Positions 1,020 to 31,238 of a stretch of DNA of 34,937 nt are shown here, piece by piece (the stretch's first letter is position 1; the number at the start of each line of letters is the position of its first letter). The notes under the pieces were generated by a model, which was not told the DNA's origin, made no database searches, and worked only from the letters and a program-made list of their open reading frames with translations. The translations under genes and the position numbers were made by a program. The DNA is from a virus (Duplodnaviria > Heunggongvirae > Uroviricota > Caudoviricetes): the IMG/VR virus record IMGVR_UViG_2571042690_000022; one strand, written 5' to 3'.

Positions 1020-1239
1020 TCTGAATACCTCCCCATTCGATATGAATATTACGGGCAGCAATGACAGGGTCGTTATTCCACCATGCACCTGACATGTATT
1101 TTTCAACCTGTTCGCGTCCGGCAATAACACCAATTGTGATCCCCGGCCTGACGTTCTTAAAAAAGGCGCGGGCAAAAAGGTATCTGGCAGATATTCGGCA
1201 GGCTTTTAATTTCCGGCTTTTACCTGATAGCGTAATCAT
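1009..1239 (-). CDS. hypothetical early protein
   Basis: 76-aa ORF; start overlaps the stop of the upstream gene (coupled arrangement); no recognisable motif. Confidence 0.3.
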   Translation of the reverse strand: MITLSGKSRKLKACRISARYLFARAFFKNVRPGITIGVIAGREQVEKYMSGAWWNNDPVIAARNIHIEWGGIQNDY

Positions 1240-1919
1240 CTGGCCTCCAGTTTCTGTTGTTCCTGCCCACTGACCGGGCGGTGCAGTCTGACGTTCTGCC
1301 CTTCACGAAACCCCGCATAGCGCGAGGCGTCGCCATTGCGGCTTCTTCCCGGTTTACGCGCCCTGGTGGTTTGCGTCTGCGGGTATTTATGTTCCAGCCA
1401 CTGCTGCATCAGTTCACGCTCATCATCGGTCAGGGCAAAGGACTGTATTTCACTGATAACGGCCAGCACCCAGCCTTCGGCAAACTGGTCTCCACGGCTG
1501 GTGCGGGTGGCGGTTTTTATTCTTTTGTTCTGTGCACTGATATACTGCTGACGCGCCTTTTTCAGCTGACGGGCCAGCACTTCCCAGGTGTATGCAGCCA
1601 GTGCCGCACGTTCCCGGTTGCCGTAGAACCCCACAGACGGATGCGTGCCGGGGTGAATGATGGAGTTAACACCAAATACCTCGCGGATGATGTTCATCAG
1701 GCCCAGCATGTAGCGCGGTGGACGGAGACTGCCTGTCGGCCAGTAGTGACTGATGGTTTCATCAATATCACTCATAGCAATGTCGGAATGTGTGATGCCG
1801 TGAACATCCATCAGTTTACGGGCTCGGCGCAGTGCCAGAGCGGCCTCGTGCGGGTTGCCGGATGCGGCCAGCGCCAGCAACTTTTTCAGTTTCTCAATGT
1901 GTTTATTCTGGTCTGTCAT
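1236..1919 (-). CDS. DUF2786-like early protein
   Basis: Start chosen at ATG 1919 (MTDQNKHIEKLKKLLALAASGNPHEAALALRRARKLM, DUF2786-like N-terminus); ATGA overlap with stop of upstream gene at 1916; GGAG RBS about 10 nt upstream. Confidence 0.5.
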   Translation of the reverse strand: MTDQNKHIEKLKKLLALAASGNPHEAALALRRARKLMDVHGITHSDIAMSDIDETISHYWPTGSLRPPRYMLGLMNIIREVFGVNSIIHPGTHPSVGFYGNRERAALAAYTWEVLARQLKKARQQYISAQNKRIKTATRTSRGDQFAEGWVLAVISEIQSFALTDDERELMQQWLEHKYPQTQTTRARKPGRSRNGDASRYAGFREGQNVRLHRPVSGQEQQKLEAR

Positions 1920-2131
1920 TGTTCTGTATCTCCGGTATTTTTCTGCCGTTTCCATGCCCGGACAGCGTCGGACAGCTCTTTCAGGCTGTATGCTGCTTTA
2001 AGCTTTTCCCATAACCACTGTGTTGTTATGTGCATCAGCAGGGCAGCCAGGGCTGCCCCCGCACTGAGGCATGTCGCCAGGCCAGTAAGAATCAGTGTCC
2101 ATGCGGTGATTTCCCTGAGTATGTCAGCCAT
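1916..2131 (-). CDS. small single-pass membrane protein, hypothetical
   Basis: 71 aa with one hydrophobic helix (WTLILTGLATCLSAGAALAALLM); tightly packed in the early operon. Confidence 0.4.
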   Translation of the reverse strand: MADILREITAWTLILTGLATCLSAGAALAALLMHITTQWLWEKLKAAYSLKELSDAVRAWKRQKNTGDTEQ

Positions 2132-2145
2132 TGAATGCCTCCCGG

Positions 2146-2442
2146 TTACTCGTTCGTGTAAATCACGCCCAGTCGTGCAGCCAGACGTTCCAGTTTTTTC
2201 TGTTTGTGGAAGTCAATCAGCCGGTCCATCCCCTGAAGGCGCAGTTGCTCTGTCATGATTTCCACGTCTGCCAGCTCTGCCGCGAGGTCACTTTCGCTGC
2301 CCTGTCCGTTCAGGTTGCGGGCGGCACTGGCCGCCAGTTCAGCGGCCTCTTCTGCCAGTTTCAGGGCCTGTGCGTCCGGCCCGAAACGCTGCAGGGCCAG
2401 ACGGTAGAGGGCGGTGCGGGTGAGTTCGGTGTTTCGTGTCAT
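2146..2442 (-). CDS. MazG-like nucleoside triphosphate pyrophosphohydrolase (all-alpha NTP-PPase)
   Basis: 98 aa; KLAEEAAELAASAA followed by LAAELADVEIMTEQL matches the paired EExxE and ExxD metal-binding helices of small MazG/HisE-like proteins (from memory). Confidence 0.55.
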   Translation of the reverse strand: MTRNTELTRTALYRLALQRFGPDAQALKLAEEAAELAASAARNLNGQGSESDLAAELADVEIMTEQLRLQGMDRLIDFHKQKKLERLAARLGVIYTNE

Positions 2443-2451
2443 GCCGCGCCC

Positions 2452-2724
2452 TCAGTGCTTCCGGCTGACGGTGATGTGCAGGCCGCCTTCTGCAGTGGTT
2501 TCCATCCGGTACGGCACCTCATGCTCTGCCGTGTGGGTGAGTGTGTTCATCAGTACCTGCAGGGCAGCCTCCTTTCCGTTGGTCGCCACAATGGCCTGTG
2601 TGGCCATGCTGATTAGCGCCGTCAGGACGTGCTTCACATCGGTGAGGTCGCGGCATTCACACTCGTTGACATAGTGTTCAACAAGGGTTCGGGTGCGCTG
2701 TCGTGCTTCCTGTGGGGTAATCAT
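2452..2724 (-). CDS. hypothetical early protein
   Basis: 90-aa ORF in operon context; no recognisable motif. Confidence 0.4.
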   Translation of the reverse strand: MITPQEARQRTRTLVEHYVNECECRDLTDVKHVLTALISMATQAIVATNGKEAALQVLMNTLTHTAEHEVPYRMETTAEGGLHITVSRKH

Positions 2725-2915
2725 TGCGAGTCCTCCCTGTCAGGGCGGGAGAATTCCATGACGGGCACGTCTGCCGAAAAATGCTGGCTGCAGTACGGGC
2801 AGACCAGGGTGACGCGTACCGCAGGGATGTGGTATTTACCGGACATCACGGCGATGGCGCTGTGAAAACGCAGGGCTGTTATATCCCTCTCGCACTGAAT
2901 ACATTTAAATATCAT
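2721..2915 (-). CDS. small zinc-ribbon protein (CxxC-N30-CxxC)
   Basis: 64 aa with CIQCERD and CPYCSQH pairs; first gene after the gam-downstream intergenic gap. Confidence 0.4.
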   Translation of the reverse strand: MIFKCIQCERDITALRFHSAIAVMSGKYHIPAVRVTLVCPYCSQHFSADVPVMEFSRPDREDSQ

Positions 2916-3012
2916 GATTTAATTCTCCTCTGTTTCCGGCGTGCAGAAGCCCGCGGCGCTGACGTCGGAATAAAAAAGAAAATGTTTTTATTAAATAATT
3001 AACGTGGTGTGT

Positions 3013-3543
3013 TTACTGCACATCCTGCTCAAAAGGAATTATTGAAAAATCCTCAATGTCGCTTTTAATGGAAATACCGGGAATATTTTTCACGGCCTCT
3101 TTTTCATTCAGGATAGCGTCTTTATTTATTTCCTCTTTTACACGAATAAAGCGCTCAAGCCCCAGACGTCTCAGTAATTCAATAACATTATCCGCCCCAC
3201 GGATACTGACTGATGGCGGACGGTTTCGCCACTGCACCTCGCCGGTGGTGAGGTTAGCGAACTTCACCTTCCCGTTGCCGGTCAGTTCATCACGGTGTGC
3301 CTCACACCATGTCTGAATACCGGACTGCAGTTCGGCCATGCGTTTTTTCAGGCTCTCGGTGAGCGGGGCATAACGTGCGGTGATATCGCCAATGGCGTCA
3401 TTCATTTCTGTTTCAGCCCTGACCAGTTCACGTTGTGCGTCACCGAGTAGTCTGATTCCCTCAATGACCTCTTCACGTGTCCCCGGCACCCAGAGTGCTG
3501 CTGCGGCCTTGATACGTTTTGCACCTTTTGTACTTTTTGCCAT
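3013..3543 (-). CDS. gam: Gam host-nuclease inhibitor (Mu Gam-like)
   Basis: 176 aa; stretches such as WRNRPPSVSIRGADNVIELLRRLGLERFIRVKEEINKDAIL and IEDFSIIPFEQ closely resemble Mu Gam as recalled. Confidence 0.85.
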   Translation of the reverse strand: MAKSTKGAKRIKAAAALWVPGTREEVIEGIRLLGDAQRELVRAETEMNDAIGDITARYAPLTESLKKRMAELQSGIQTWCEAHRDELTGNGKVKFANLTTGEVQWRNRPPSVSIRGADNVIELLRRLGLERFIRVKEEINKDAILNEKEAVKNIPGISIKSDIEDFSIIPFEQDVQ

Positions 3544-3570
3544 TTTTTATGATTTCTCCAGTTGTGCTGA

Positions 3571-3840
3571 TTACCACAAAGATTCCGGCCACACGACGCG
3601 ACAGCCGTGCAGTTCGAAAACGCCCTGACGGAAATATCCCCTGTGGTCATGTCCGGTATACAGATAACAGGCCTTTCCCTGCTCAAGCATGCGCATGCAA
3701 TGCGCACTCCGGGAAACGCGGATGACAGGTTTGTTACCCCTGATGGTGATGCTTTGTACATCCGTGTTCGTCGCCTTAAGCGCCATAATGGCTGACTGCA
3801 CTTTGCTGATTTGCTGGTTGATACCTGTGGTGGATTTCAT
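3571..3840 (-). CDS. hypothetical early protein between B and gam
   Basis: 89-aa ORF starting 2 nt after the B stop, with AAGGGG RBS inside the B 3' end; the overlapping 3402-3761 ORF is rejected. Confidence 0.5.
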   Translation of the reverse strand: MKSTTGINQQISKVQSAIMALKATNTDVQSITIRGNKPVIRVSRSAHCMRMLEQGKACYLYTGHDHRGYFRQGVFELHGCRVVWPESLW

Positions 3841-3842
3841 TA

Positions 3843-5009
3843 TTAAACCCCTTTGACAACGTCAGCGTTGACCTGTGGAACCCCGATTTCAGCGGCCAGA
3901 TTCATGGCGGCTATTACCAGGTTACTGACGGCCAGCGGATACAGCAGGCTGACCATATTTTTACGGTGACTTCCCGGATTGCTCAGGCGGGCACGTATGG
4001 CATCCACTGCACCGGCGTCCATAATGTCCGTCAGCTGTTTACCGGCCCGTTGCAGTTTGAACGTCAGAAATTCTTCAAGGTTATTGTCCAGAGGCAGAAG
4101 TTCGACCACCTCACAGCGCTGAACGACTTCACGGACTTCCATATTGCGTTCAGACAGTTTTGTCGCCAGTTCCGGCTGGCCAATCAGCACGATGGACAGC
4201 AGTTTTTTGAAACCGGACTCCAGCTCAAAAAAGCGTTTGAGGTGTTTCAGTGTCGGAATGGGCAGACTGTGGGCCTCCTCAATCACCAGAACGTGGCTGA
4301 ACCCCGCCTGGCTGCTGTCTTTCAGGACGCGATGCAACTGGCGAAAACGGGCGTCCTGACTGCGTCTGATGCTTTCCAGTGGTGCGATGGTACTGATAAT
4401 GGCTTCGGCAATAGCTGCTGCCTTCAGGGTTTTCCCTTTCACATCGTTGTCTTCCATAGCGATGATGTATGGCTCGATAACAATTACCGGCGCATTCTCG
4501 CGGTTGATACGTTCAGTCAGGTCGCGGCGCAGCGTGGATTTACCCGCACCGGACTCACCGATGACGGCCATAAACCCACCATGACGGGCTGTCTGGTACA
4601 GCGCCTCACGCACGTAGCGAATGTCCGGGGTGGTGAACACATCATCAGAACCCTGCATGGCTTCGTCGGCGAACGGGTCACGGAAAAGACCAAACGCTTT
4701 TTTGGTTGCTGGAAATAACACCTGTTTTTTGAGTAACATATTCTCTTCCTCACTGAGGCTCGTTTTATCTGTGGTACCCGCTGTACGGGGCGTGGCCGCG
4801 CCCTGTACAGCATCAAAACTCTTCGTTGTATCAATCCCCTGACTTTCCAGCCAGGACGCAAGACGCCGGCGCACTTCTCCGGGGCTGGTGCGGGGCCACG
4901 CGTTATGATTCACAATCTGGGCCAGCGTGGCCTCAGAAACATCGACAGCTCTCGCCACCACCGCCTGTGGAATACGGGCCTCTTTCAGTTGCTGCTTCAG
5001 TACCAGCAT
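3843..5009 (-). CDS. transposition ATPase (Mu B-like/TniB-like AAA+ protein)
   Basis: Walker A GESGAGKST, Walker B-like HVLVIEEAH, N-terminal HTH-like segment; start set to ATG 5009 (MLVLKQQ) with GAGGAGGG RBS; directly downstream of the transposase. Confidence 0.8.
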   Translation of the reverse strand: MLVLKQQLKEARIPQAVVARAVDVSEATLAQIVNHNAWPRTSPGEVRRRLASWLESQGIDTTKSFDAVQGAATPRTAGTTDKTSLSEEENMLLKKQVLFPATKKAFGLFRDPFADEAMQGSDDVFTTPDIRYVREALYQTARHGGFMAVIGESGAGKSTLRRDLTERINRENAPVIVIEPYIIAMEDNDVKGKTLKAAAIAEAIISTIAPLESIRRSQDARFRQLHRVLKDSSQAGFSHVLVIEEAHSLPIPTLKHLKRFFELESGFKKLLSIVLIGQPELATKLSERNMEVREVVQRCEVVELLPLDNNLEEFLTFKLQRAGKQLTDIMDAGAVDAIRARLSNPGSHRKNMVSLLYPLAVSNLVIAAMNLAAEIGVPQVNADVVKGV

Positions 5010-5019
5010 GTTTCCCTCC

Positions 5020-6789
5020 TCAGTTGCCGTTAACAATGCTGATAACACTGCTGCGGGCCGGTGTGGTCAGCGTGGCCATGACTTCATCCAGTGCGGCTTC
5101 CGGTACGCCGTCCGGGTACTGTGCCGTTAACTGGCGGTAATGTTCCGGCGTCCAGGTAAGGCCGTCGGCGCTGAACTTATCGCGCAGGGCTTTCGCGGCC
5201 TCCACATGAGTCATGGGACGTTGTTCAGTGCGCGGCCCGCGTACGTCAGAGGCCTGACCACGCTTCGGCATATAGGCCGGAAGTGTGGTGTCGTCGATAT
5301 GTTTATACGGGTCAAGCCGCCCGCCGAACGGCAGCGCCTTCGCCTTGCGTGCGGCGGCTGCATCTGCGGCGTTGTCTGTACCGGTAACCAGCGCTTCGGT
5401 TTCTTTTGCCGCCATCTGTGCCGGGGTTTCCGGCAGGGCTTTGTAACTTTCGCCAAATACCGCCGCGCCTTCAGCAAAGCCAAACTCGTTCTTTCTGACC
5501 TCTTCGACCAGGAAGAACGTCTCGTGGCCGTCCTCACCGGTCAGAACCACCTGTGCCACATCGCTGCGCCATGGGTTACGGGTAATCATCAGTTTTTCAC
5601 CAACCAGTACGCCCGGTACCGTTGATACGTCAAATTCAGTGCCCCGGAACGAGACACGAAGTTTTGGCGTGACTTTGCGGAGTTCTGGTGCCGCCACAGC
5701 CAGTTCACGACATACCTCAACGGAAGGCGCTTTTTTCAGCTGCTCAGCAGTAATCTTCAGCCAGATATCCGTGCGGGTTTTACCGTGGCGGCTGTGAACA
5801 GCCGTGGCGTTAAAGTGGCTGCGCCATTTCGCGGCCAGCGCGTTGAGTTCTTCCAGACTGTGAACCGGCCGGAACTTCAGACCCGGCTCCAGCTTGCGTT
5901 CGATAATGTCACGCGCCTTTTCCACCTGTCCGGTGGCGCGGGCGTTATGCGGCTTGTGCGCTATCAGGTCGATGCCCAGTGAGCGGCACATGTTTTTCGT
6001 CATACCCGCGGTGTTTGCCGAGCCGGGGTCGAGATAGAGTATTTTCGGCACGCCGTGCAGCACGTCTGCGCCGCCACGCTCCTGCATGGCGTTGATAAGC
6101 ACAGAACACAGGTTCTCACCTGATTCCGCGCCCGTCACATACTCAACGTAAATCCAGCCGCTGGCATGGTCGGTAATCTCGTAACTCCACACGCGGTCAC
6201 TGGCGATACGGGCAAGGTTAGCGGGCTTGTTCTTGTAGAACTTCGCGCTGTCCATCACCTGCAGCCCTTTATGTCCATTGCTCAGGTAGTAAAGCGTGCA
6301 GAGTGAGGCGTCAATCTGCCAGACATGATTGGGATGCAGACTGGCCACTTCGGTATGTGGTGCAGGGGCATCCAGTTGTTCCGGGTGCAGGCCATAGTTA
6401 CGCAGAGCACGGCTGATGGCATCTTCAGACAACGGGAAAAACTCACTGGTGGTTTCATCTGTTCTGCCTGCGGTGATAAAGCCGTTAGCCCGCAGGGTTT
6501 CCACTGCATCTGCGATGGAATAGAGACGCTTACCGTTCTTGCGGGTGGCCTCACGCAGTGTGGCAGATATCAGCGCGGCTTCGTCGCGGGTCAGGGCGCT
6601 GCGCCCGGCATCGGCGCGTTTTTTGCGTTTATCAGTCACAGATACCTCCTTCAGCCTGCGCAGCAGAGTGGCGCGGGACATGCCAAGTTCAGCACAGGCA
6701 GCGTCGTATATTGCACCGCGTTTACCATGCCCCGCGTCACGTGCCGCGCGGGCTGTTTCAACCAGTTTTTCAGTCAGTGCCGGGGTCAT
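5020..6789 (-). CDS. DDE transposase (Mu A-like)
   Basis: 589 aa; candidate DDE residues in WQIDAS, YLDPGS and GQVEKA; gene order ner-like, A, B as in transposable phages. Confidence 0.9.
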   Translation of the reverse strand: MTPALTEKLVETARAARDAGHGKRGAIYDAACAELGMSRATLLRRLKEVSVTDKRKKRADAGRSALTRDEAALISATLREATRKNGKRLYSIADAVETLRANGFITAGRTDETTSEFFPLSEDAISRALRNYGLHPEQLDAPAPHTEVASLHPNHVWQIDASLCTLYYLSNGHKGLQVMDSAKFYKNKPANLARIASDRVWSYEITDHASGWIYVEYVTGAESGENLCSVLINAMQERGGADVLHGVPKILYLDPGSANTAGMTKNMCRSLGIDLIAHKPHNARATGQVEKARDIIERKLEPGLKFRPVHSLEELNALAAKWRSHFNATAVHSRHGKTRTDIWLKITAEQLKKAPSVEVCRELAVAAPELRKVTPKLRVSFRGTEFDVSTVPGVLVGEKLMITRNPWRSDVAQVVLTGEDGHETFFLVEEVRKNEFGFAEGAAVFGESYKALPETPAQMAAKETEALVTGTDNAADAAAARKAKALPFGGRLDPYKHIDDTTLPAYMPKRGQASDVRGPRTEQRPMTHVEAAKALRDKFSADGLTWTPEHYRQLTAQYPDGVPEAALDEVMATLTTPARSSVISIVNGN

Positions 6790-6804
6790 AGCTTGTCTTC
6801 CCTG

Positions 6805-7122
6805 TTATCCGATTCTGGCGGCAATTTTTCTGGCGAGGTCGCACAGTGTTTCGCCATCGCAGGTTTTCACCACGGTATTTACCGGTTGCGGTGCAACTAC
6901 CGGGCGTAATGCTGACTGATTCTGCAGACGTCTTATCTGCTGCATCAGCATCACCTCCATCGTCAGTACAAACGGGTGCGTCTCCTGTGCGGGTACGCAG
7001 ATTTCACCGGAAGGGGTCACCACGCGGAAACCCTGCACCATCTCCGGCAGCAGATTACACAGTGCGTGCCCCAGTGCCTCCGGGCTGTCCATCAGGGTAT
7101 TTTGTGTGTTATTCGTATTCAT
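6805..7122 (-). CDS. hypothetical early protein
   Basis: 105-aa ORF between the upstream early gene and the transposase; no motif recognised. Confidence 0.4.
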   Translation of the reverse strand: MNTNNTQNTLMDSPEALGHALCNLLPEMVQGFRVVTPSGEICVPAQETHPFVLTMEVMLMQQIRRLQNQSALRPVVAPQPVNTVVKTCDGETLCDLARKIAARIG

Positions 7123-8042
7123 TACTGCATATCCTCCGGTCGGTTGATTTCAGGTTCCGGTTCGGTCAGCCAGGCGGGGGCATCGTTACCCGATGGAGCG
7201 GCCTCAAGGTCAAACGTCTCACGTAATGCATGAACACTGCGTTCAATCTGGCAGACCAGACCGGCCATGAAATCTCTGGGGGTATCGATCATGTTTTTGG
7301 TGCAGTATTCACACAGGGTCTCAAAAACACTGGACAGCCGGACGGCGATAGCCGATTCGGCCTCAACCGCTAATGCCGTCACTTCCGCCCGCAATTTTTT
7401 CAGTTCTTCGTCTGGCGGCGGAGGTTGCAGGCGCGATTTCTTCTCCAGTTTTGTGGCCAGTTCGTTGATTTTTTCGTCCTTTCCGGCAAGCACCTGTTGC
7501 TGAGCTGCGTTGGTTTCGCGCGCTTCACGCAGGGCGGCCTTCAGTTCGCGGCTGGTCATGCGATCAATATCATCAAGCGTTGCACCGGCGACGGTTCCAC
7601 CATCAGCTAATGCGTCGAGTTCTTCGTCATCCAGAACCATCAGTTCATATAACTTGGTTTTTCCCAAAACGCTCAGCGCTGAGCGTTTTGGCTGTTCATC
7701 TCCATTGCCGAGAAATTTCACGCTGGCCTGCATCATGCGACGAGCTACCTGTGGTGCTAATCCGAGGTCGTTTTCCAGAATATTTGTGAAATCACCATGC
7801 GGTTCATTTTCTTTTAAGATGATCAGCCGCTTACCCGCTTCCAACATAGATTCAGCACTCTGCGCCATATAAAAACGTGCTTCGTGAACGATGCGTTCAC
7901 GTTCATAAGGCAGTCCATCACCAAACTGCTGCATGATCTCCATGCGATGCTGTGTCATGGCATTCAGGCTGACGTTGAGATCATCCGACAGCGGTACATC
8001 GGCGTTCAGTTCAGTGTTAATCGGTGATTTGGTACGTCCCAT
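7122..8042 (-). CDS. hypothetical early protein (possibly DUF3102-like)
   Basis: 306-aa ORF with AAGGAG RBS about 8 nt upstream of ATG 8042; predicted coiled-coil middle region; family assignment is a recollection only. Confidence 0.45.
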   Translation of the reverse strand: MGRTKSPINTELNADVPLSDDLNVSLNAMTQHRMEIMQQFGDGLPYERERIVHEARFYMAQSAESMLEAGKRLIILKENEPHGDFTNILENDLGLAPQVARRMMQASVKFLGNGDEQPKRSALSVLGKTKLYELMVLDDEELDALADGGTVAGATLDDIDRMTSRELKAALREARETNAAQQQVLAGKDEKINELATKLEKKSRLQPPPPDEELKKLRAEVTALAVEAESAIAVRLSSVFETLCEYCTKNMIDTPRDFMAGLVCQIERSVHALRETFDLEAAPSGNDAPAWLTEPEPEINRPEDMQ

Positions 8043-8052
8043 TGATTACTCC

Positions 8053-8361
8053 TTACAAACGACTACCTGAAATGACACGTTGGTTAATTTCGTTAATACG
8101 ATCCTGTGCACGTGCCATCTCGTTACTGTGGGCCATGGCGATCTGCAGTAACTGGATGCCCGGTGCAAAACGTCCGTTCTCCAGTTTCAGAGCCAGCCCT
8201 TCTTCAATGAGGGTGTTGAGTGCCCGGTTGATGTTTGCCGGTGACTCGTGCAGTGCTGTCGCCAGTTCACCGTTAGAAATACCGTTCAGGGCATGACCGC
8301 GCAGCGCTTTGAGTACCCGGAGGATGCGACTGCCGGAGCTTGAAACATTCGTCTTACTCAT
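8053..8361 (-). CDS. winged-helix DNA-binding protein (IclR/MarR-like HTH)
   Basis: SRILRVLKAL...GISNGELATAL...NINRALNTLIEEGL resembles a wHTH N-terminal domain; start uncertain (8361 or 8367). Confidence 0.45.
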   Translation of the reverse strand: MSKTNVSSSGSRILRVLKALRGHALNGISNGELATALHESPANINRALNTLIEEGLALKLENGRFAPGIQLLQIAMAHSNEMARAQDRINEINQRVISGSRL

Positions 8362-8413
8362 CTGCATACCTCTTTTGCGATATGTGATAACCTTTTACAA
8401 AGACTCAAAATAT

Positions 8414-8602
8414 TTAGGCCGCCTGAGCTGTTGATTTCAGTCCCAACTTCACGGCGATTTCATGGGATTTACCGTAACGGGCTTTGGTCTGCCCGTTGAG
8501 AACGCGGTATACCTCATTGCGGTTGTAGCCGTTTTCTTCTGCCCAGCGGGTGAAAGTGATCCCGCGCTGGCGGAAGAGAGCTTTGACTTGTTCTGCAGTC
8601 AT
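8414..8602 (-). CDS. Ner-like DNA-binding protein (Cro-like early regulator)
   Basis: 62 aa; pattern resembles the Ner/Nlp family; first gene of the leftward operon, divergent from the repressor; AAGGAG RBS 7 nt upstream of ATG 8602. Confidence 0.6.
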   Translation of the reverse strand: MTAEQVKALFRQRGITFTRWAEENGYNRNEVYRVLNGQTKARYGKSHEIAVKLGLKSTAQAA

Positions 8603-8695
8603 CGTTGTCTCCTTTGTTGATGCAATGATGTTTGCCTTATATGTGTTAGATTATTGCTCATAATTATGAGCATATCAAGATAGAGATTCACTTTT
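8603..8695. promoter_or_regulatory. divergent early-promoter / repressor-promoter switch region
   Basis: 93-bp AT-rich gap between divergent ner-like and repressor genes; contains the 8655-8672 palindrome and a TATAAG-like -10 (rc of 8636-8641) suitably placed for the leftward operon. Confidence 0.5.
8655..8672. promoter_or_regulatory. candidate operator: 18-bp perfect palindrome TGCTCATAATTATGAGCA
   Basis: Perfect dyad read directly from the sequence; its right half TTATGAGCA recurs at 8694-8702 overlapping the repressor start codon. Confidence 0.5.
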
Positions 8696-9052
8696 ATGAG
8701 CAAAGATATAGGAGAGCGCGTTATTTCTGTGAGGAAGAAAGCAGGGTTGAACCAGAGAGAATTTGCAGCTCGTTTAGGTATTTCTAATGGTGGTATCAGT
8801 CAGATTGAAAATGGAAAGGCGATGCCTGGAGGGGAGTTTCTGTTAAAGATGCATCAAGAGTTTAATGTTGATGTAAATTGGTTGCTCACTGGAATGAGCA
8901 CAGATGGTATGACTAGAAACCAGAATCAAATTTCCCCAGAAAAACAAAAACTAATAGATACTTTTGACGACATGACACCAGACCAACAACGCTCATTTCT
9001 TGAGATTGGGCGATTCTATACTCAGCCAAAACCAGGAAAAATCGCAGGCTGA
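8696..9052 (+). CDS. XRE-family HTH repressor (lysogeny repressor candidate)
   Basis: 118 aa; N-terminal HTH (LNQREFAARLGISNGGISQIENGK); divergent from the early operon; gene is markedly AT-rich relative to its neighbours; weak or no SD. Confidence 0.75.
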   Translation: MSKDIGERVISVRKKAGLNQREFAARLGISNGGISQIENGKAMPGGEFLLKMHQEFNVDVNWLLTGMSTDGMTRNQNQISPEKQKLIDTFDDMTPDQQRSFLEIGRFYTQPKPGKIAG

Positions 9053-9137
9053 TACTGACCCGGACACAAAGGACAGGTGGTTGATCTGGATGCTTTCAGA
9101 AAACATCGCCAGTGACATAGTGGAAGTTGTTTGGTTT

Positions 9138-9170
9138 ACCGGAAAGCATTGTGCTTTCCGGTTTTGTTTC
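9138..9170 (+). terminator. rho-independent terminator-like hairpin
   Basis: Stem ACCGGAAAGCA (9138-9148), loop TTG, stem TGCTTTCCGGT (9152-9162), then TTTGTTTC; lies between the convergent repressor and dam 3' ends. Confidence 0.5.
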
Positions 9171-9933
9171 AGAAGTTGCAGATTAGCAGTTCACGGCGCG
9201 GCGTGGGTTTACCCGCCAGACTGTAGTTGATATTCACTGTCTGTATGTTCAGTCCAGTGAACACCTCGCGCATCTGCGGGATGTCGTTCACCGAAATTAT
9301 CATTTTTCCTCTGATGCACCGGGCCAGCTCTGCCAGCCGCGAGTAGTTCCCTTCAGGAAAATCCACACCATAGCCTTCCGTACCCAGGTACGGTGGGTCG
9401 CAGTAGAACAGCGTGTGCGGACGATCATAACGCTCAATGCACTGTTGCCAGTCCATGTGTTCTATGACTGTTCTGGAAAGCCGCAGGTGTGCCGCTGACA
9501 GTTCTTCTTCAATACGTAGCAGGTTGAAGCGTGGCGGGGATGTGGTGGAGGTACCGAAGCTGTGCTCTGCCACCTTGCCGCCAAACGCCTGCTTCTGAAG
9601 GTAGTAGAACCGTGCCGCACGCTGGATATCCGTCAGTGTTTCTTCCGGGGTGATCTGCAGCCATTTGTAGATCTGACGGCTGACCAGCGCCCATTTGAAC
9701 TGGCGGACAAATTCTTCCAGGTGATGCTTTACCACCCGGTACAGATTCACCAGTTCACCGTTGATATCATTGATGACTTCGATCTTGCCGGGTGTCTTAA
9801 GAAAATAGAGCGCTGCTGCCCCACAAAACGGCTCCACATAACATTCATGCGCCGGAAACAGCGGCAGAATGTGTTTTGCAAGGCGGCGTTTGCCACCAAT
9901 CCACGGCACGATGGGTAATGTCTGCATTTTCAT
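9169..9933 (-). CDS. dam: Dam-family DNA N6-adenine methyltransferase (orphan, no cognate endonuclease seen)
   Basis: WIGGK, YVEPFCGAAALYF, INDINGELVNLY and FYCDPPY match E. coli Dam motifs as recalled; start set at ATG 9933 (MKMQTLPIV) rather than the ORF-track start at 10023. Confidence 0.85.
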   Translation of the reverse strand: MKMQTLPIVPWIGGKRRLAKHILPLFPAHECYVEPFCGAAALYFLKTPGKIEVINDINGELVNLYRVVKHHLEEFVRQFKWALVSRQIYKWLQITPEETLTDIQRAARFYYLQKQAFGGKVAEHSFGTSTTSPPRFNLLRIEEELSAAHLRLSRTVIEHMDWQQCIERYDRPHTLFYCDPPYLGTEGYGVDFPEGNYSRLAELARCIRGKMIISVNDIPQMREVFTGLNIQTVNINYSLAGKPTPRRELLICNF

Positions 9934-10038
9934 AATCTGCAAGCCTTTTACAATTATTAAAAAATATGGCAGTCTGGTCAGGTCTCGCGAGACTGACTGA
10001 ACCTTGGTCGGCTCACAGCGCATTCCTGTGGGGCGATG

Positions 10039-10068
10039 ACCAGCCCGGCTTTCGGGTGCCGGGCTGGT
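10039..10068. other. strong hairpin (11-bp GC-rich stem, 8-nt loop) in the dam-upstream intergenic region
   Basis: ACCAGCCCGGC (10039-10049) pairs perfectly with GCCGGGCTGGT (10058-10068); followed on the plus strand by CGTTCTTTC. Confidence 0.4.
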
Positions 10069-10123
10069 CGTTCTTTCATGATGCGGCAGGGATGGCGGGA
10101 TTTCTGTTAATGTGGTTTAGGGA

Positions 10124-10339
10124 TTATCCGGGGCGATTTTCTGACCTTATCCGGTCCAGGGCATAAGTAATACCTTCTGCAAAAACAGAAGTATCAAACT
10201 GCTTTTGTATTCCCTGAAAATGAAAAGCGGCACGACAGACACTCAGTTCTCCGCGGTATAACCGGATAATATCTTCCAGAACATTGTTCACTGCTTCAGC
10301 ACGGCGCTGATGTTCTGTTAACGTTAATCGGGGATTCAT
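10124..10339 (-). CDS. hypothetical small protein (71 aa)
   Basis: ORF with strong AAGGAG RBS 7 nt upstream of ATG 10339; lies in an AT-rich patch; start codon overlaps head-to-head with the 10338 plus-strand ORF. Confidence 0.35.
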   Translation of the reverse strand: MNPRLTLTEHQRRAEAVNNVLEDIIRLYRGELSVCRAAFHFQGIQKQFDTSVFAEGITYALDRIRSENRPG

Positions 10340-10742
10340 GATGCACTCCTTAAATGATGATTTTTATGTACTCACCGGCAAAATATTCTGCCGATTACTG
10401 AACACGCATCCGGCACCTCAGGTTTTGATTTATTCTGGTTTTTTCGATATCCCGGACCAGGTTGATCACGACCAGAAAAAGTGCCGGTGTTTTATTGATA
10501 CGCTGATATGGCTTCGGGATAACAGCTATATTCGTTACTCTCAGTTGCTGGCTGTGGGAGCGGCTGATGTCGTCCTCACGGAAAAAACGCTCTGTCTGCT
10601 CAATGCCATGCCGACCTTTCTGCAGCCCCGGCCCGTACCATTTAAAGAGTCACTTCTGGATGCAGTAAAAACCGGTGAAAATGCAGTCATCGCTGAATGC
10701 GTATCCCGGATTATGCGTTACGTGTTTAATGAACGTAAGTGA
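10338..10742 (+). CDS. hypothetical protein (134 aa)
   Basis: Long ORF in AT-rich DNA where chance ORFs are rarer; GGGGA 4-8 nt upstream of tandem ATGs; fills the only gap lacking a minus-strand ORF; reality uncertain. Confidence 0.35.
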   Translation: MMHSLNDDFYVLTGKIFCRLLNTHPAPQVLIYSGFFDIPDQVDHDQKKCRCFIDTLIWLRDNSYIRYSQLLAVGAADVVLTEKTLCLLNAMPTFLQPRPVPFKESLLDAVKTGENAVIAECVSRIMRYVFNERK

Positions 10743-11446
10743 GGTTTATCCGCTGTCTGCATAATCCCGATAGCCAGTGCGAGGGGAAGTAATTCCGGGG
10801 AAACTCTTTCAAACAGCGATGCCCATTCTCCTCTCGCCATCACTCTGTCCAGCCCGCCCTCCAGTTGCATTTCAGCAATCTTCCTGATTTCCCGGAACAA
10901 CGCCGCTTTGATCTCTTCATGCTCAGCTTTATTTTCCGGTGTCAGAAGGTATTCGTCGAAGAACCGGGGAGGCTGGTTAATCGGGATGTGTTCCTGTTTG
11001 CCGTACTTCGGGGACGAACAACATTCTGTTGACTGACCAGTGAGTTTACGTAACTCCTTCATGAGCAGCTCCTGATCGTAAACTGTCATCAGTGCCGCAA
11101 TGGTGGCATGCAGTGCATCGGGCAGTATCCAGGGTTGCCGGCCCGTGGGGCATATAACATCCAGCAGCTCATTCGTCCGACAGATACGCTCCTCGCCGTA
11201 TGACAACAGGCCCTGTCCCGTGTATTCCTCCAGCCTGATCACTGTGCCAGCCCGTGGTTTCTGCCATGTGCTCAGATCATCCCCACTCATACGGCGCTCA
11301 CCGTCCACGTCTGCGGCGTCGACAATGACGCTGTTTCCGAATTCCTGTTTCACCACTTCCTCTATTCGCGCCAGTACGTAACTTTTACCGCTGCCCACAG
11401 GACCGGACACGGTGACAGTGATGACCGGATTCAGTGTCTGCGTCAT
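10718..11446 (-). CDS. P-loop NTPase/kinase-like protein of unknown function
   Basis: 242 aa; Walker A GPVGSGKS at residues 16-23, then hydrophobic strand plus acidic segment SVIVDAADVDGERR; GAGGAG RBS upstream of ATG 11446; divergent from the late lysis operon. Confidence 0.55.
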   Translation of the reverse strand: MTQTLNPVITVTVSGPVGSGKSYVLARIEEVVKQEFGNSVIVDAADVDGERRMSGDDLSTWQKPRAGTVIRLEEYTGQGLLSYGEERICRTNELLDVICPTGRQPWILPDALHATIAALMTVYDQELLMKELRKLTGQSTECCSSPKYGKQEHIPINQPPRFFDEYLLTPENKAEHEEIKAALFREIRKIAEMQLEGGLDRVMARGEWASLFERVSPELLPLALAIGIMQTADKPHLRSLNT

Positions 11447-11508
11447 ATCGTATTCTCCTCTGTGAATAATTCATCGTTTATCCTGCACATCCCGTATCCC
11501 CGGCTCTC

Positions 11509-11526
11509 TTAACGCGCTTTAAAATC
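11509..11526 (+). promoter_or_regulatory. late-promoter motif copy 1 (TTAACGCGCTTTAAAATC) upstream of lysis genes
   Basis: One of four copies of TTAA-N6-TTAAWATC, each in a late intergenic gap 32-56 nt before a start codon. Confidence 0.45.
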
Positions 11527-11576
11527 CTTCGCGCCCTGTATTTGTGATGCTGTCTCCACCAGATAAGGAGACACAC

Positions 11577-11927
11577 ATGAAAAACCTGAAAAAATTCATT
11601 CCCCCTGTTAAAAAACCTCGCCTCAGCGGCTGGCTGCTGACCTCAGTGCTGTTGCTGGGCACCATCGCTCTGGTCTCACCACAGCAGCTGCCTGTTGTGA
11701 TCTACAAGCTGGCACTCATCACGCTGGCAGCAGTGCTGGGTTACTGGCTTGACCGTTCGCTCTTCCCCAAAGCCCGTCCCGGTCAGTACCTGAAACATGA
11801 CGACAGGCTGATGGCTGAAGGGCGTTTCCCGGTACAGACCGGCCTTCACCTGGTGTTTTCTGCTGCGTTAATCCGCCGTGCACTGATTGTTGCAGCGGTC
11901 TGCCTGGCTGTTGCGATGGGGCTTTAA
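11577..11927 (+). CDS. holin-like membrane protein
   Basis: 116 aa from ATG 11577 with AAGGAG RBS 7 nt upstream; 2-3 predicted TM helices; immediately precedes the endolysin. Confidence 0.5.
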   Translation: MKNLKKFIPPVKKPRLSGWLLTSVLLLGTIALVSPQQLPVVIYKLALITLAAVLGYWLDRSLFPKARPGQYLKHDDRLMAEGRFPVQTGLHLVFSAALIRRALIVAAVCLAVAMGL

Positions 11928-29291: not shown

Positions 29292-29503
29292 TGTTTCTTG
29301 AACATGTTACCCGTGACGGAGAGCGCTGGGATTCGCTGGCATGGCAGTACTACGGTGACCCGCTGGGCTATCCCCGGATTATTGCCGCCAATCCGCACGT
29401 GGCCATCACGCCGGTGCTGCCCTCCGGGCTGTTGTTACTGATCCCGGTGATTGAGGCTGAAGAAGCCCGTACAGAAGAGGATATTGCCCCATGGCTGAGA
29501 TAA
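29288..29503 (+). CDS. tail protein X-like (LysM-like)
   Basis: 71 aa; WQYYGDP...IIAANPHV...LPSGLLLLIP pattern resembles P2 gpX-type proteins (recollection). Confidence 0.55.
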   Translation: MMFLEHVTRDGERWDSLAWQYYGDPLGYPRIIAANPHVAITPVLPSGLLLLIPVIEAEEARTEEDIAPWLR

Positions 29504-30645
29504 ACAGCACTGCGCAAGTCACATCAGCGTTAACCGGCGTCAGCGATGTGCTGACACCGGTGTTCACTCTGTGGTATCTGCAGAAAAACATCACCTCTGA
29601 TATCGCGCCTTATGTCACCCGTGTGACCTGGAGCGATAACATCAAAAATGAGTCCGATACCATTGAGGTGGAGCTGGACGACACCGATGGCCGCTGGCTG
29701 GATAAATGGTATCCGGGCAAGGGTGACACGCTGACGCTGAAAATGGGCTATCAGGGCGAGAAGCTGCTGTCCTGCGGTACGTTCTCTATAGACGAGATCG
29801 AAGTGAGTTCGCCCGCTTCCGTTGTTTCTATCCGTGGGGTGGCCACCTCGGTTAACAGTGCCCTGCGGACTAAAACCAGTCGTGGTTTTGAGAACACCAC
29901 GCTGGCAGCTGTTGCGGGGCGGATTGCCAGAAAGCACCGGCTGAAACTGGTGGGCAGCATTGAGTCCATCAGAATCGACCGGGTGACCCAGTATGCTGAA
30001 ACCGACGTGGGTTTTCTGCGCCGGCTGGCCAGCGAGTATGGTTATGCAGTGAAAGTGGTCAGTGACCAGCTGATTTTTTCTCATCTGGCCACACTGCGCA
30101 GTCAGGAGCCGGTCAGGCAGTTAAAACCGCAGGATGTGGCCCGCTTTTCCCTGCGTGACACCATCAACCGGGTCTATAAATCTGCAAAGGTAAAACACCA
30201 GAAAAGCAGCAGTAAAAAACTGATCGTCTACGAAGCTGATGGTGGTACCCGTGAAAGCGACAAAAAGCTCAAAGGTGGTAAGGTTACCAGCGCTGACTCA
30301 CTTAAAGTTAACAGCCGCGTCAGCGACCCGGACAGTGCCCGGATTAAAGCGGATTCAGCACTGGCCAGACATAACGAATACCAGCAGAACGGCTCCCTGA
30401 CGCTGACGGGAACACCTCAACTGACAGCAGGCAACAAAATTGAACTGGTGAGTTTTGGGCAGTTATCCGGGCCATGGCTCATAACCACTGCCCGCCATGC
30501 GTTTGACCGTAACAGCGGCTACACCACAGAGCTGGAAGTGGCACGGGGGCCAGTCACAAGAGGGAAAAAACAAAAAACTCAGAAACTCACGGTTTATCAC
30601 CCGGATGGCAGTACATCGACGGTGATTAAGGAGAAGAAAAAATGA
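29491..30645 (+). CDS. baseplate hub protein (gpD-like / Mu P-like)
   Basis: 384 aa; synteny before the spike protein. Confidence 0.65.
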   Translation: MAEINSTAQVTSALTGVSDVLTPVFTLWYLQKNITSDIAPYVTRVTWSDNIKNESDTIEVELDDTDGRWLDKWYPGKGDTLTLKMGYQGEKLLSCGTFSIDEIEVSSPASVVSIRGVATSVNSALRTKTSRGFENTTLAAVAGRIARKHRLKLVGSIESIRIDRVTQYAETDVGFLRRLASEYGYAVKVVSDQLIFSHLATLRSQEPVRQLKPQDVARFSLRDTINRVYKSAKVKHQKSSSKKLIVYEADGGTRESDKKLKGGKVTSADSLKVNSRVSDPDSARIKADSALARHNEYQQNGSLTLTGTPQLTAGNKIELVSFGQLSGPWLITTARHAFDRNSGYTTELEVARGPVTRGKKQKTQKLTVYHPDGSTSTVIKEKKK

Positions 30646-31238
30646 CTGGTGTCACTCGTCAGGTCGGTACGGTCAGTGCCGTTGATGCCGACAGGGTTCA
30701 GGCCCGCGTTCGTCTGCCTGAATGCGATAACCTGCGCACAAACTGGCTTAACGTGCTGCAGCGCAATACCCAGGATAACAAAGATTACTGGCTCCCTGAC
30801 GTGGGGGAGCAGGTTGAGGTGCTGCTCGATGCCAACGGCGAGGATGGTGTTATTCTGGGCGCGGTGTATTCAGACGTCGATAAACCACCGTTCAGTGACA
30901 AAAATATCCGGGGAACCCGGTTTGCTGATGGTGCAGAGTACAGCTACAACCGGAAGACGCACACTCTGATCATCCGGGGCGGCATTGAGCATATTGTCAT
31001 TGAGTGTGGTGCTGATGTGGTATTGAAAACACAGAAAGCCACGATTGACGCACCGGAAACCGAACTTACCGGAGATCTGCGTGTCAGGGGTAAGCTGATT
31101 TACGAAGGAGGCATGGCGGGTTCTGGTGGTGAAGGTGTTACCGCGACCATCCATGGCAATATCGAGATTAAAGGGAATGTCCATGCCACGGGCAGTATGT
31201 TGTCTGATGGCGAAAACTCCAGCCACCACTCCCACTGA
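30642..31238 (+). CDS. baseplate spike / assembly protein V-like (Mu gp45-like)
   Basis: 198 aa; position and size typical of gpV-type spike; C-terminal Gly-rich region. Confidence 0.65.
   Translation: MTGVTRQVGTVSAVDADRVQARVRLPECDNLRTNWLNVLQRNTQDNKDYWLPDVGEQVEVLLDANGEDGVILGAVYSDVDKPPFSDKNIRGTRFADGAEYSYNRKTHTLIIRGGIEHIVIECGADVVLKTQKATIDAPETELTGDLRVRGKLIYEGGMAGSGGEGVTATIHGNIEIKGNVHATGSMLSDGENSSHHSH

Follow-up and report, generated by a model that had tools for sequence, protein, structure and literature searches.

The locus described here lies in a window of 34,937 nucleotides, by which we denote the whole stretch of phage DNA analysed, and comprises the genes and features compiled in Table 1. 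As the earlier note had stated, the methylase gene is convergent with the repressor gene, from which it is separated by a gap of 116 bp, and within the phage it occupies a central position between the repressor and the lysis cassette (holin). Its placement next to the repressor holds for the window but is not conserved, since an extra gene of 177 aa is inserted between the two in Klebsiella-type copies. The gap harbours a strong hairpin (11 pairs, 3-nt loop, -17.6 to -19.5 kcal/mol, z = -3.5 to -5.6) whose subsequent T-run extends into the stop codon (9169-9171) of the methylase. The terminator scan reported this hairpin on the plus strand only; in the minus-strand direction the stem runs into AAACCAAAC. 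Since the T-run is confined to the plus strand, the element qualifies as a canonical intrinsic terminator solely of the repressor transcript. Hence, of the proposal that both genes share a terminator hairpin, the hairpin itself stands, while the U-tract serves the repressor strand alone.

Table 1. Features of the methylase locus (window coordinates; a dot denotes no strand).
Feature	Position	Strand	Basis and remarks
HTH_3/CI-like repressor gene, 118 aa	8696..9052	+	PF01381 4.6e-15, Phage_CI_repr 1.8e-5, PHROG transcriptional repressor families
Predicted intrinsic terminator of the repressor transcript	9138..9169	+	Hairpin 9138-9162, then T-run TTTTGTTT 9162-9169; terminator scan, inverted repeat, folding
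Solitary D12-class (alpha-group) SAM-dependent DNA methyltransferase CDS, 254 aa	9169..9933	-	ORF, profiles, RefSeq match
Shine-Dalgarno-like AAGG	9944..9947	-	10 nt upstream of the ATG at 9933; read from sequence
Sigma-70-like promoter match (CTGACC, 17 nt, AATAAT)	9953..9981	-	Consensus scan, 9/12; weak
Perfect 12-bp palindrome GTCTCGCGAGAC	9982..9993	.	Directly upstream of the -35-like hexamer
GC-rich perfect 12-bp stem with 8-nt loop	10038..10069	.	Inverted-repeat search; followed on the plus strand by GTTCTTTCAT

The methylase reading frame, which ends at 9169 with the stop codon included, offers two possible starts, one at 9933 (254 aa) and one at 10023 (284 aa). The longer version, which is the one annotated in phage PhiKM, was rejected because a 1-nt indel within 9934-10023 breaks its frame in Klebsiella-type relatives. 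Together with the AAGG upstream of it and the conservation of its ATGAAA in Klebsiella-type copies, this broken frame supports the start at 9933. At the Shine-Dalgarno-like site, AAAAGGCTT is kept in the Klebsiella copies as well as in that of KP12, and the NCBI PGAP annotation in E. coli genomes likewise gives the 765-bp/254-aa version (WP_000783854.1).

The predicted protein matches the D12 class N6-adenine methyltransferase profile PF02086 over profile positions 1-248 of 253 with E = 6e-29 and a score of 102 bits at a cutoff of 22 bits, and by sequence its assignment to the D12 methyltransferases lies far beyond chance. The translation contains W11-x-G-G-K15, E34-P-F-C-G38-A-A, N55-D56 and D179-P-P-Y182 and thereby the motif order of the alpha group, namely the SAM-binding GGK and FxGxG-like motifs followed by the target-recognition region and a C-terminal DPPY. 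Throughout 77 diverse relatives G13, K15, G38, D56 and D179-Y182 are invariant, and the GGK, FxGxA and DPPY motifs are invariant or nearly so. The AlphaFold2 model (pLDDT 94, pTM 0.91) adopts, according to Foldseek, a Dam-like fold with a TM score of 0.80-0.85 to E. coli Dam (2G1P, 4RT*). Comparison with the 81%-identical Klebsiella copy yields a dN/dS of 0.09, from which it follows that the gene is under purifying selection. The description of a phage-borne methyltransferase gene is thus borne out for an intact member of the D12/Dam superfamily with all cofactor and catalytic motifs. The DPPY motif favours adenine as the target base, yet M.CbeI, likewise a DPPY enzyme, methylates the N4 of cytosine.

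No nuclease or defence-system match was obtained for the neighbours of the methylase (71, 134 and 242 aa), which agrees with the earlier observation that no restriction endonuclease gene is adjacent. Copies of 81-86% identity (KP12, Klebsiella) have other flanking genes but retain the methylase and a region of 170 bp upstream of it. Since the flanking genes differ between relatives, the methylase is to be regarded as solitary.

A comparison over 3.5 kb showed complete identity (100%) between the window and Escherichia phage PhiKM (Bcepmuvirus). The same element carries a DDE transposase, an ExeA/MuB-like ATPase, Gam, GemA, Mor and a BcepMu gp16-family protein; by this transposase and these Mu/BcepMu-type early genes the carrier is a transposable phage of the Mu/BcepMu/B3-like kind. 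The methylase is identical to WP_000783854.1, which is present in strain 4/1-1 and in EC958. In the latter it is located within a BcepMu-like prophage; the invertible segment with the tail fibres (1,005,540-1,007,607) marks this prophage as the published Phi2, and no other methylase is annotated in its examined part. M.EcoMIV (EC958_1101, PF02086), published in 2015 as an orphan Dam homologue, has been placed on Phi2 of the ST131 strain EC958 (Forde et al. 2015, PMC4659465). We therefore identify WP_000783854.1 as M.EcoMIV of prophage Phi2. Accordingly, the gene is already known, having carried a name in both REBASE and published work since 2015, and is a routine, catalogued orphan methylase of a phage. 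The region is matched in 632 of 5426 complete E. coli genomes (about 12%); within ST131 the prophage occurs in clades B and C and is absent from clade A (Forde et al., PMC4659465).

The affiliation to a “Dam family” proposed in the earlier note is valid at the level of the D12 superfamily but does not extend to Dam proper. The protein exceeds the cutoff of the “dam” subfamily model TIGR00571 just barely (116.6 bits versus 114.85) and fails the Dam equivalog model NF008152 with 67 bits at a cutoff of 441. Those residues by which E. coli Dam reads GATC, K9, Y119, N120, L122, R124 and P134 (PMC4417163), align to P10, F117, G118, K120, A122 and S129 of the methylase. Thus R124, which discriminates the fourth base pair, is replaced by alanine and P134 by serine within a recognition hairpin that is three residues shorter than in Dam, and N120 and K9 give way to glycine and proline, respectively. 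Within the methylase family the R124 column is variable, with V, D and R being commonest, while H29, R86, R151 and E158, all of them absent from E. coli Dam, are nearly invariant. With 127.6 bits for the N4-cytosine methylase M.CbeI and 115.8 bits for E. coli Dam, a profile of the family matches the former as well as it does the latter. The best PADLOC match is to a distinct model for type II methyltransferases, MTase_II (371 bits), which is generic and carries no information on specificity, while the best “orphan methyltransferase” model reaches 96.7 bits. Judged from these residues, the target sequence is probably not read by a Dam-type hairpin.

A true GATC-specific Dam isoenzyme such as T4 Dam or P1 Dmt would keep the rapidly replicating phage DNA fully GATC-methylated and might thereby protect it from MboI/DpnII-type enzymes or MutH, or time phage functions. 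We consider this alternative possible but unlikely. Besides the residues and model scores given above, it is opposed by the scarcity of GATC in the prophage (0.53 of expectation) and by the REBASE listing of 2015, in which M.EcoMIV figures as a putative type IIA enzyme, that is, one with an asymmetric site and not Dam (PMC4659465). Apart from the TIGR00571 match, it is favoured by the GATC enzymes DpnM and E. coli Dam being the best sequence matches among solved structures. AlwI recognises GGATC and hence a site with a GATC core. It is the AlwI methylase which the GenBank note on phiE125 gp27, a homologue of 65% identity, names as similar. Furthermore, in the methylome published for EC958 GATC is masked by the Dam of the host (PMC4659465), and an enzyme acting on GATC would, as observed, add no motif to it. 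The target site may therefore still contain GATC, concealed by host Dam methylation. As the affiliation to Dam holds at the superfamily level only, the suggested test of DpnI, DpnII or MboI sensitivity is informative only if this is the case, and more generally a “Dam-family” annotation does not imply GATC specificity. As to another candidate site, an enrichment of GATATC was rejected, its 23 copies facing a Markov expectation of 22.4.

The sigma-70-like match upstream of the methylase is doubtful or activator-dependent since its -10 hexamer is not conserved in relatives. The adjoining palindrome GTCTCGCGAGAC is invariant in five aligned copies and unique in the window, and it is possibly a candidate binding site of a regulator. 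As a shared activator site of the Mor/C type it was rejected on account of this uniqueness and of its near-matches, 13 of which were found against 14.4 expected. Shared 11-mers between the methylase upstream region and the rest of the window amounted to chance matches only, and no activator site common to this region and other operons of the window was detected. Farther upstream, the GC-rich stem lies within the conserved 170 bp and folds with z = -4 on both strands. In Klebsiella copies it displays one compensatory change from C-G to T-A and one broken pair. An Rfam scan of 8300-11700 at E <= 1, which includes this stem, returned no match. Likewise, no ORF with a Com-like zinc finger (CxxC...CxxC) was found near 9934-10360, and the sole small ORF of this type in the window is located far off, near 2900 on the minus strand. 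A Com-like regulator upstream of this methylase, unlike in B3 and Mu, was therefore rejected.

Most likely, the methylase serves to methylate the phage DNA during lytic growth and thus to protect it against restriction. We consider it reasonably probable that it is a stand-alone, active D12 methyltransferase of the BcepMu-type prophage Phi2 which acts in a Mom-like self-protection of the phage. In the lysogen the gene would be kept nearly silent. After induction it would be expressed and the enzyme would methylate the many replicating phage copies before packaging, so that the progeny DNA would enter the next host pre-protected against restriction enzymes cutting the same site. If active, the methylase would shape the restriction barriers which the phage and the DNA transduced by it are able to cross. 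Against this role count the central position of the gene, which is not at the right end, the lack of a Com-like gene beside this copy, and the weak, non-conserved promoter in conjunction with no shared activator site having been found. With regard to the lysogen, transcription of M.EcoMIV in EC958 (mid-log, LB) is significantly lower than that of dam; no methylation motif could be assigned to the enzyme, all m6A motifs of EC958 having been attributed to others, and the authors predicted it to be inactive under the conditions used (PMC4659465). Silence in the lysogen is, however, not a rule throughout the clade, since gene 27 of phi1026b (65% identical) is appreciably expressed in a Burkholderia lysogen (RPKM 21,563; PMC2920897).

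The same data bear on the idea that the methylase is an epigenetic regulator of lysogenic conversion which, expressed from the prophage, methylates the host chromosome and either alters host gene expression or “vaccinates” the host against incoming restriction-modification systems. Its location in an accessory region beside the immunity genes, where cargo expressed in the lysogen is often found, the wide distribution of the prophage and the expression of phi1026b gene 27 would suit such a function. In view of the low transcription, the lack of an assignable motif and the predicted inactivity of M.EcoMIV in EC958, we nonetheless judge it very unlikely, and the suggestion of the earlier note that the enzyme might alter host gene expression is disfavoured. 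Exceedingly improbable is a methylase of relaxed, nearly sequence-independent specificity as in Hia5 and Hin1523, or a non-adenine, N4-cytosine enzyme like M.CbeI, since, despite a hairpin devoid of the Dam specificity residues and matching M.CbeI in length and F-x-G-x-V pattern, and despite the fact that a DPPY motif as such permits N4 methylation, the target-recognition region shows strong conservation, many of its positions being nearly invariant, which fits a defined site, the 1000 sequences closest to Hia5 do not include B3 ORF48, and the homologous gp27 of phiE125 is reportedly an adenine methylase. In its favour, the prophages FluMu and Pnme1 carry Dam-related non-specific enzymes in the place of mom (PMC3299994).

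The preferred reading of a Mom-like protection in lytic growth draws on the relatives of the methylase. By sequence it belongs to a clade typified by ORF48 of phage B3, to which it is 64% identical over the full length (E = 3e-124) and which comprises 674 cluster representatives at E <= 1e-30. Transposable phages carry members of this clade repeatedly; these often occupy the place that mom takes in Mu, and at times a Com regulator precedes them. In B3 itself, ORF48 follows the Com-like ORF47, and a Comamonas element contains a Com gene in overlap with a 58%-identical methylase. In MuM16-1, UMP151, Aussie, RR1-B and Lsp-JY19 the homologue is located behind the tail-fibre genes at the right end, i.e. 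in the mom position, and in a Mu-like metagenomic contig it follows baseplate and tail genes. Early genes of transposable phages are present in the three of these checked: in Aussie and RR1-B there is a repressor together with transposase A/B, in UMP151 a transposase along with a BcepMu gp16-family gene. Shewanella phage MuM16-1 is Mu-like according to its publication, in which another methylase, KASIA_p114, was tested and not the 62%-identical homologue. For no member of the clade of more than 65% identity has a demonstrated activity been reported (PMC4659465, PMC3299994). Among the transposable phages of Alpha-, Beta- and Gammaproteobacteria the clade is common. Going further, one might suppose that the M.EcoMIV/B3 ORF48 clade as a whole is the Mom equivalent of many transposable phages, with a non-Dam recognition (whether of a new, defined site or with a specificity as relaxed as that of Hia5) and with expression switched on exclusively in lytic growth via the conserved structured upstream region 9934-10078; this generalisation we regard as decidedly speculative and rather doubtful.

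Ultimately, we compared the methylase with known systems. M.EcoMIV of Phi2 in EC958 is, by our identification, the same protein in the same BcepMu-like prophage without any sequence difference. Phage B3 is likewise transposable and shares the inverted layout of the early region, including a BcepMu-type holin, an SLT endolysin, DUF3102 and the transposase. It possesses a DNA adenine methylase in place of Mom (Drozdz et al. 2012, PMC3299994). This ORF48, whose methylase activity is putative (PMC3299994), resides inside the tail gene cluster directly behind the Com homologue, whereas the methylase of the window, encoded on the opposite strand and lacking a Com gene beside it, has the repressor gene on one side and the lysis genes on the other.

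To Mu Mom, which together with Com forms a late, tightly controlled DNA-modification module protecting the phage DNA from restriction, there is a functional analogy only: Mom, an unrelated member of the acyltransferase superfamily, produces acetamido-adenine, whereas the protein of the window is a predicted SAM-dependent methyltransferase. Hia5, Hin1523 and Nme1821 are Dam-related DPPY enzymes which replace Mom in Mu-like prophages and are silent in the lysogen (PMC3299994). In contrast to the methylase, they form a separate, much more divergent clade of non-specific adenine methylases with about 15% identity to M.MboIA.

The GATC-specific enzymes of solved structure, E. coli Dam, DpnM and T4 Dam, share with the methylase the fold (TM 0.8 for E. 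coli Dam and DpnM, about 0.7 for T4 Dam), the motif order and the DPPY catalytic loop. Yet they are just 24-25% identical to it, and compared to theirs the beta-hairpin by which it would read DNA is shorter and has neither R124 nor P134. In the length and pattern of this hairpin the methylase rather resembles M.CbeI (PDB 7M6B), an alpha-class N4-cytosine methylase which also carries DPPY and gives a comparable profile score. M.CbeI is, however, 21-22% identical to the methylase and of non-phage origin, being the methylase required for the transformation of Caldicellulosiruptor bescii with DNA from E. coli.

The open reading frame of the methylase, which ends on the minus strand at 9169, can begin at 9933 (254 residues), at 9927 or, mechanically, at 10023 (284 residues). 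Support for 9933 comes from the sequence, as an AAGG motif lies 10 nt 5' of this codon, ATGAAA together with AAAAGG is kept at the start in related copies, and the longer frame is disrupted in such copies by a 1-nt indel located between 9934 and 10023. NCBI PGAP gives a 765-bp gene of the same extent, WP_000783854.1, annotated as "DNA adenine methylase". The 284-residue version in the GenBank record of Escherichia phage PhiKM (PQ738613.1), whose positions 29435-29857 and 29908-30762 correspond to window 8696-9118 and 9169-10023, is over-long; the RefSeq annotation of the identical prophage includes the 254-residue methylase and the repressor WP_000031013.1. In the PhiKM record the CI-like repressor gene is unannotated and a 41-residue minus-strand ORF overlapping its 3' end is present instead. 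The translated protein matches Pfam PF02086 (D12-class N6-adenine methyltransferase, 6e-29) over the whole model and contains the motifs W-x-G-G-K (11-15), E-P-F-C-G-A-A (34-40), N-D (55-56) and D-P-P-Y (179-182). When 77 diverse relatives are aligned, G13, K15, G38, D56 and D179-Y182 prove invariant, and the AlphaFold2 model made from this alignment (pLDDT 94, pTM 0.91) superimposes on E. coli Dam with a TM of 0.80-0.85, which predicts a Dam-like fold. Since, in addition, dN/dS amounts to 0.09 against the 81%-identical Klebsiella copy, the gene is real, intact and under purifying selection, which bears out the phage methylase that the earlier note had placed at 9169-9933.

Between 8000 and 11500 the window is 100% identical to PhiKM, a member of the genus Bcepmuvirus whose source is uropathogenic E. 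coli. Of 5426 complete E. coli genomes, 632 match the stretch 8600-10400, nearly always on the chromosome, and in 402 the match extends over at least 80% of its length. GATC is rarer in the prophage than expected from a Markov model (89 observed, 168 expected, ratio 0.53; the adjoining EC958 chromosome gives 0.85) and is missing from a stretch of 6.1 kb across the early/transposase arm (1138-7287); CTAG occurs a single time in the window. GATC-free regions in EC958 prophages were noted earlier by Forde et al. (PMC4659465). In EC958, the ST131 reference strain, WP_000783854.1 is encoded at 1,031,787-1,032,551 within a BcepMu-like prophage. The invertible tail-fibre segment of prophage Phi2 (1,005,540-1,007,607; PMC4134206) falls on the tail side of this prophage, which is therefore Phi2. 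Forde et al. 2015 assigned to Phi2 a type II orphan methylase with a PF02086 domain, M.EcoMIV (EC958_1101; PMC4659465), and the retrieved part of the EC958 prophage has no annotated methylase other than WP_000783854.1. We thus conclude that the methylase gene of the window is M.EcoMIV, a known gene and a typical phage orphan methylase. Among annotated E. coli proteins, over 80 are 100% identical to M.EcoMIV, which is missing in ST131 clade A, and for none of its homologues of more than 65% identity is the recognition site known (PMC4659465).

The designation "Dam-family" in the earlier note holds for the superfamily (PF02086, TIGR00571) and is too specific beyond it, the interpretation being otherwise largely right. 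The TIGR00571 "dam" model is passed barely (116.6 bits, cutoff 114.85), while the Dam equivalog model NF008152 yields 67 bits against a cutoff of 441, and the methylase shares 24-25% identity with E. coli Dam and DpnM. The profile of the methylase family scores DpnM at 132.8 bits, M.CbeI (7M6B) at 127.6, E. coli Dam at 115.8 and T4 Dam at about 52; PADLOC assigns 371 bits to a distinct model for type II methyltransferases, compared with 96.7 for the best "orphan methyltransferase" model. In E. coli Dam, K9 and Y138 recognise the first base pair, Y119 intercalates, N120 forms a base hydrogen bond, L122 and P134 contact the third base pair and R124 reads the G of the fourth, discrimination being lost in R124A (PMC4417163). 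According to a MAFFT and a HMMER profile alignment, which agree, R124, L122, P134, Y119, N120 and K9 correspond to A122, K120, S129, F117, G118 and P10 of the methylase, whose hairpin has three residues fewer. Within the family the column aligned to R124 varies, V, D and R being commonest, and H29, R86, R151 and E158, nearly invariant there, are absent from E. coli Dam. That the methylase is a true GATC-specific Dam isoenzyme is, with these GATC-reading residues missing, rather unlikely. A GenBank note on phiE125 gp27, 65% identical to the methylase, gives the AlwI methylase as similar. AlwI has the asymmetric site GGATC. This likeness may explain the provisional REBASE label of M.EcoMIV, type IIA with an asymmetric site (PMC4659465). 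If the site had a GATC core, host Dam would conceal its methylation in the published EC958 methylome; a site devoid of GATC would have to stay unmethylated in the lysogen. The modest interest of the methylase resides in a hairpin which is not Dam-like and in a widespread clade without any member of determined recognition site.

Features around the methylase gene in the window
Feature	Position	Strand	Remarks
BcepMu gp16-family Ner-like gene	8414-8602	-	divergent from repressor
HTH_3/CI-like repressor gene	8696-9052	+	118 aa; left of methylase
Hairpin in convergent gap	9138-9162		11-bp stem, 3-nt loop
Promoter-like site	9927-9954	+	
Perfect palindrome GTCTCGCGAGAC	9982-9993		conserved in relatives; unique in window
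GC stem, 12 bp	10038-10069	both	retained in relatives; one pair changed compensatorily, C-G to T-A
Three function-unassigned genes	10124-11446	-, +, -	right of methylase; 71 aa (-) phrog_4490, 134 aa (+) phrog_2266, 242 aa (-) phrog_3787

A gap of 116 bp separates the convergent methylase and repressor genes. The hairpin therein had been proposed as a terminator shared by both; it is indeed present, yet its stem is followed by a T-run, TTTTGTTT, on the plus strand only, where it overlaps the methylase stop codon, and by AAACCAAAC on the minus strand. It accordingly constitutes a canonical terminator of the repressor transcript and, for the methylase transcript, would be at best a hairpin without a U-tract. 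A Klebsiella copy harbours a different hairpin in the equivalent gap. In the 93 bp that separate the divergent repressor and Ner-like genes, a perfect 18-bp palindrome, TGCTCATAATTATGAGCA (8655-8672), overlaps the -10 of an early promoter-like site (8678..8650, minus strand), and an extra half-site, TTATGAGCA (8694-8702), overlaps the repressor start codon at 8696; both are probably immunity operators. Further left, winged-helix and DUF3102 genes are found and, in identical prophage copies, also DDE transposase, ExeA/MuB-like ATPase, Gam, GemA and Mor genes. Among the three small genes on the right, the 134-residue one overlaps both neighbours with its ends and the 242-residue product carries an N-terminal P-loop, GPVGSGKS. 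Beyond them follow holin and SLT endolysin genes and, in the PhiKM and EC958 copies, head and tail genes. As a DUF2441 gene replaces this block in Klebsiella-type relatives, we regard it as a variable cargo slot of BcepMu-like prophages.

About 170 bp 5' of the methylase (window 9934-10078) are conserved to the same degree as the methylase coding sequence in comparison with the 81-86%-identical Klebsiella and KP12 copies. Besides the GC stem and the palindrome GTCTCGCGAGAC, they include a small CACAG...CTGTG stem, and they gave no Rfam match. With the GC stem followed by GTTCTTTCAT on the plus strand and the promoter-like site on that strand, this stretch could represent a terminator, an antisense/divergent RNA of about 100 nt or a regulatory leader. 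The methylase itself has a weak sigma-70-like promoter (9953-9981), the -10 of which relatives do not keep.

In mid-log LB culture, M.EcoMIV is transcribed significantly less than dam, shows no assignable methylation pattern and was predicted to be inactive (PMC4659465). For this enzyme, nearly silent and without assignable motif in the EC958 lysogen (PMC4659465), the most likely course is expression after prophage induction; it would then methylate the replicating phage DNA, so that progeny DNA would enter the next host protected from restriction. An epigenetic regulator serving lysogenic conversion seems improbable given such silence, which is, however, not universal in the clade, since phi1026b gene 27 is appreciably expressed in its Burkholderia lysogen (PMC2920897). 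An enzyme of relaxed specificity or an N4-cytosine methylase is highly improbable, although M.CbeI is an alpha-class N4-cytosine enzyme carrying DPPY (PMC8616854); B3 ORF48 of Pseudomonas phage B3, a clade member, is not included among the 1000 closest relatives of Hia5/Hin1523, the non-specific enzymes that take the place of Mom in further Mu-like prophages (PMC3299994).

The family comprises 674 clusters at E <= 1e-30 in a search of 1.84 billion representatives, and a word-index search returned homologues of 85-89% identity from Salmonella, Klebsiella, Enterobacter, Citrobacter, Serratia, Yersinia and others. Enterobacterial relatives were examined in Klebsiella phage KP12 and on five bacterial chromosomes. 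There the methylase occupies the same BcepMu-like prophage slot, between CI-like repressor and holin, flanked by a DUF2441 gene and a 177-residue gene instead of the three small genes of the window. As the methylase and about 170 bp of conserved upstream DNA move together while the flanks differ, there is good evidence that the methylase stands alone as a module instead of being one partner in a restriction-modification system, in line with the term "orphan" in the earlier note. Outside transposable phages the clade includes gene 27 of phiE125 and phi1026b (65%), and copies about 40% identical are carried by many Clostridium perfringens plasmids. Clostridium, mostly C. perfringens, accounts for 136 of 234 matching plasmid records, often with the gene at the record start (e.g. 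NC_011412.1, 471-1226). Several PLSDB "plasmids" of 36-41 kb bearing the family (NZ_CP083453.1, NZ_CP062157.2, CP075758.1, NZ_CP010721.1 and others) look like genomes of phages, possibly transposable ones, that were submitted as circular plasmids; in the two records checked, the methylase is adjoined by genes for phage tail and lysis functions.

The clade is tied to transposable phages and to the positions of Mom and Com, the modification gene of Mu and its regulator. No Com gene was found beside the methylase of the window. A 36.9-kb Comamonas element harbours a Com-family gene overlapping a 58%-identical methylase, and a Mu-like metagenomic contig shows baseplate and tail genes followed by the methylase. 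Of three phages checked for transposable-phage early genes, Aussie and RR1-B possess transposase A/B together with a repressor, and UMP151 encodes a transposase along with a member of the BcepMu gp16 family; MuM16-1 is Mu-like according to its publication. B3 ORF48 (64% identity) lies immediately behind ORF47, which is homologous to Mu Com, and B3 is described as having a DNA adenine methylase in place of Mom (PMC3299994). In Shewanella MuM16-1, Pseudomonas UMP151, Sinorhizobium Aussie, Rhizobium RR1-B and Leptolyngbya Lsp-JY19 the methylase lies at the right genome end after the tail-fibre genes, which is the com-mom position of Mu.
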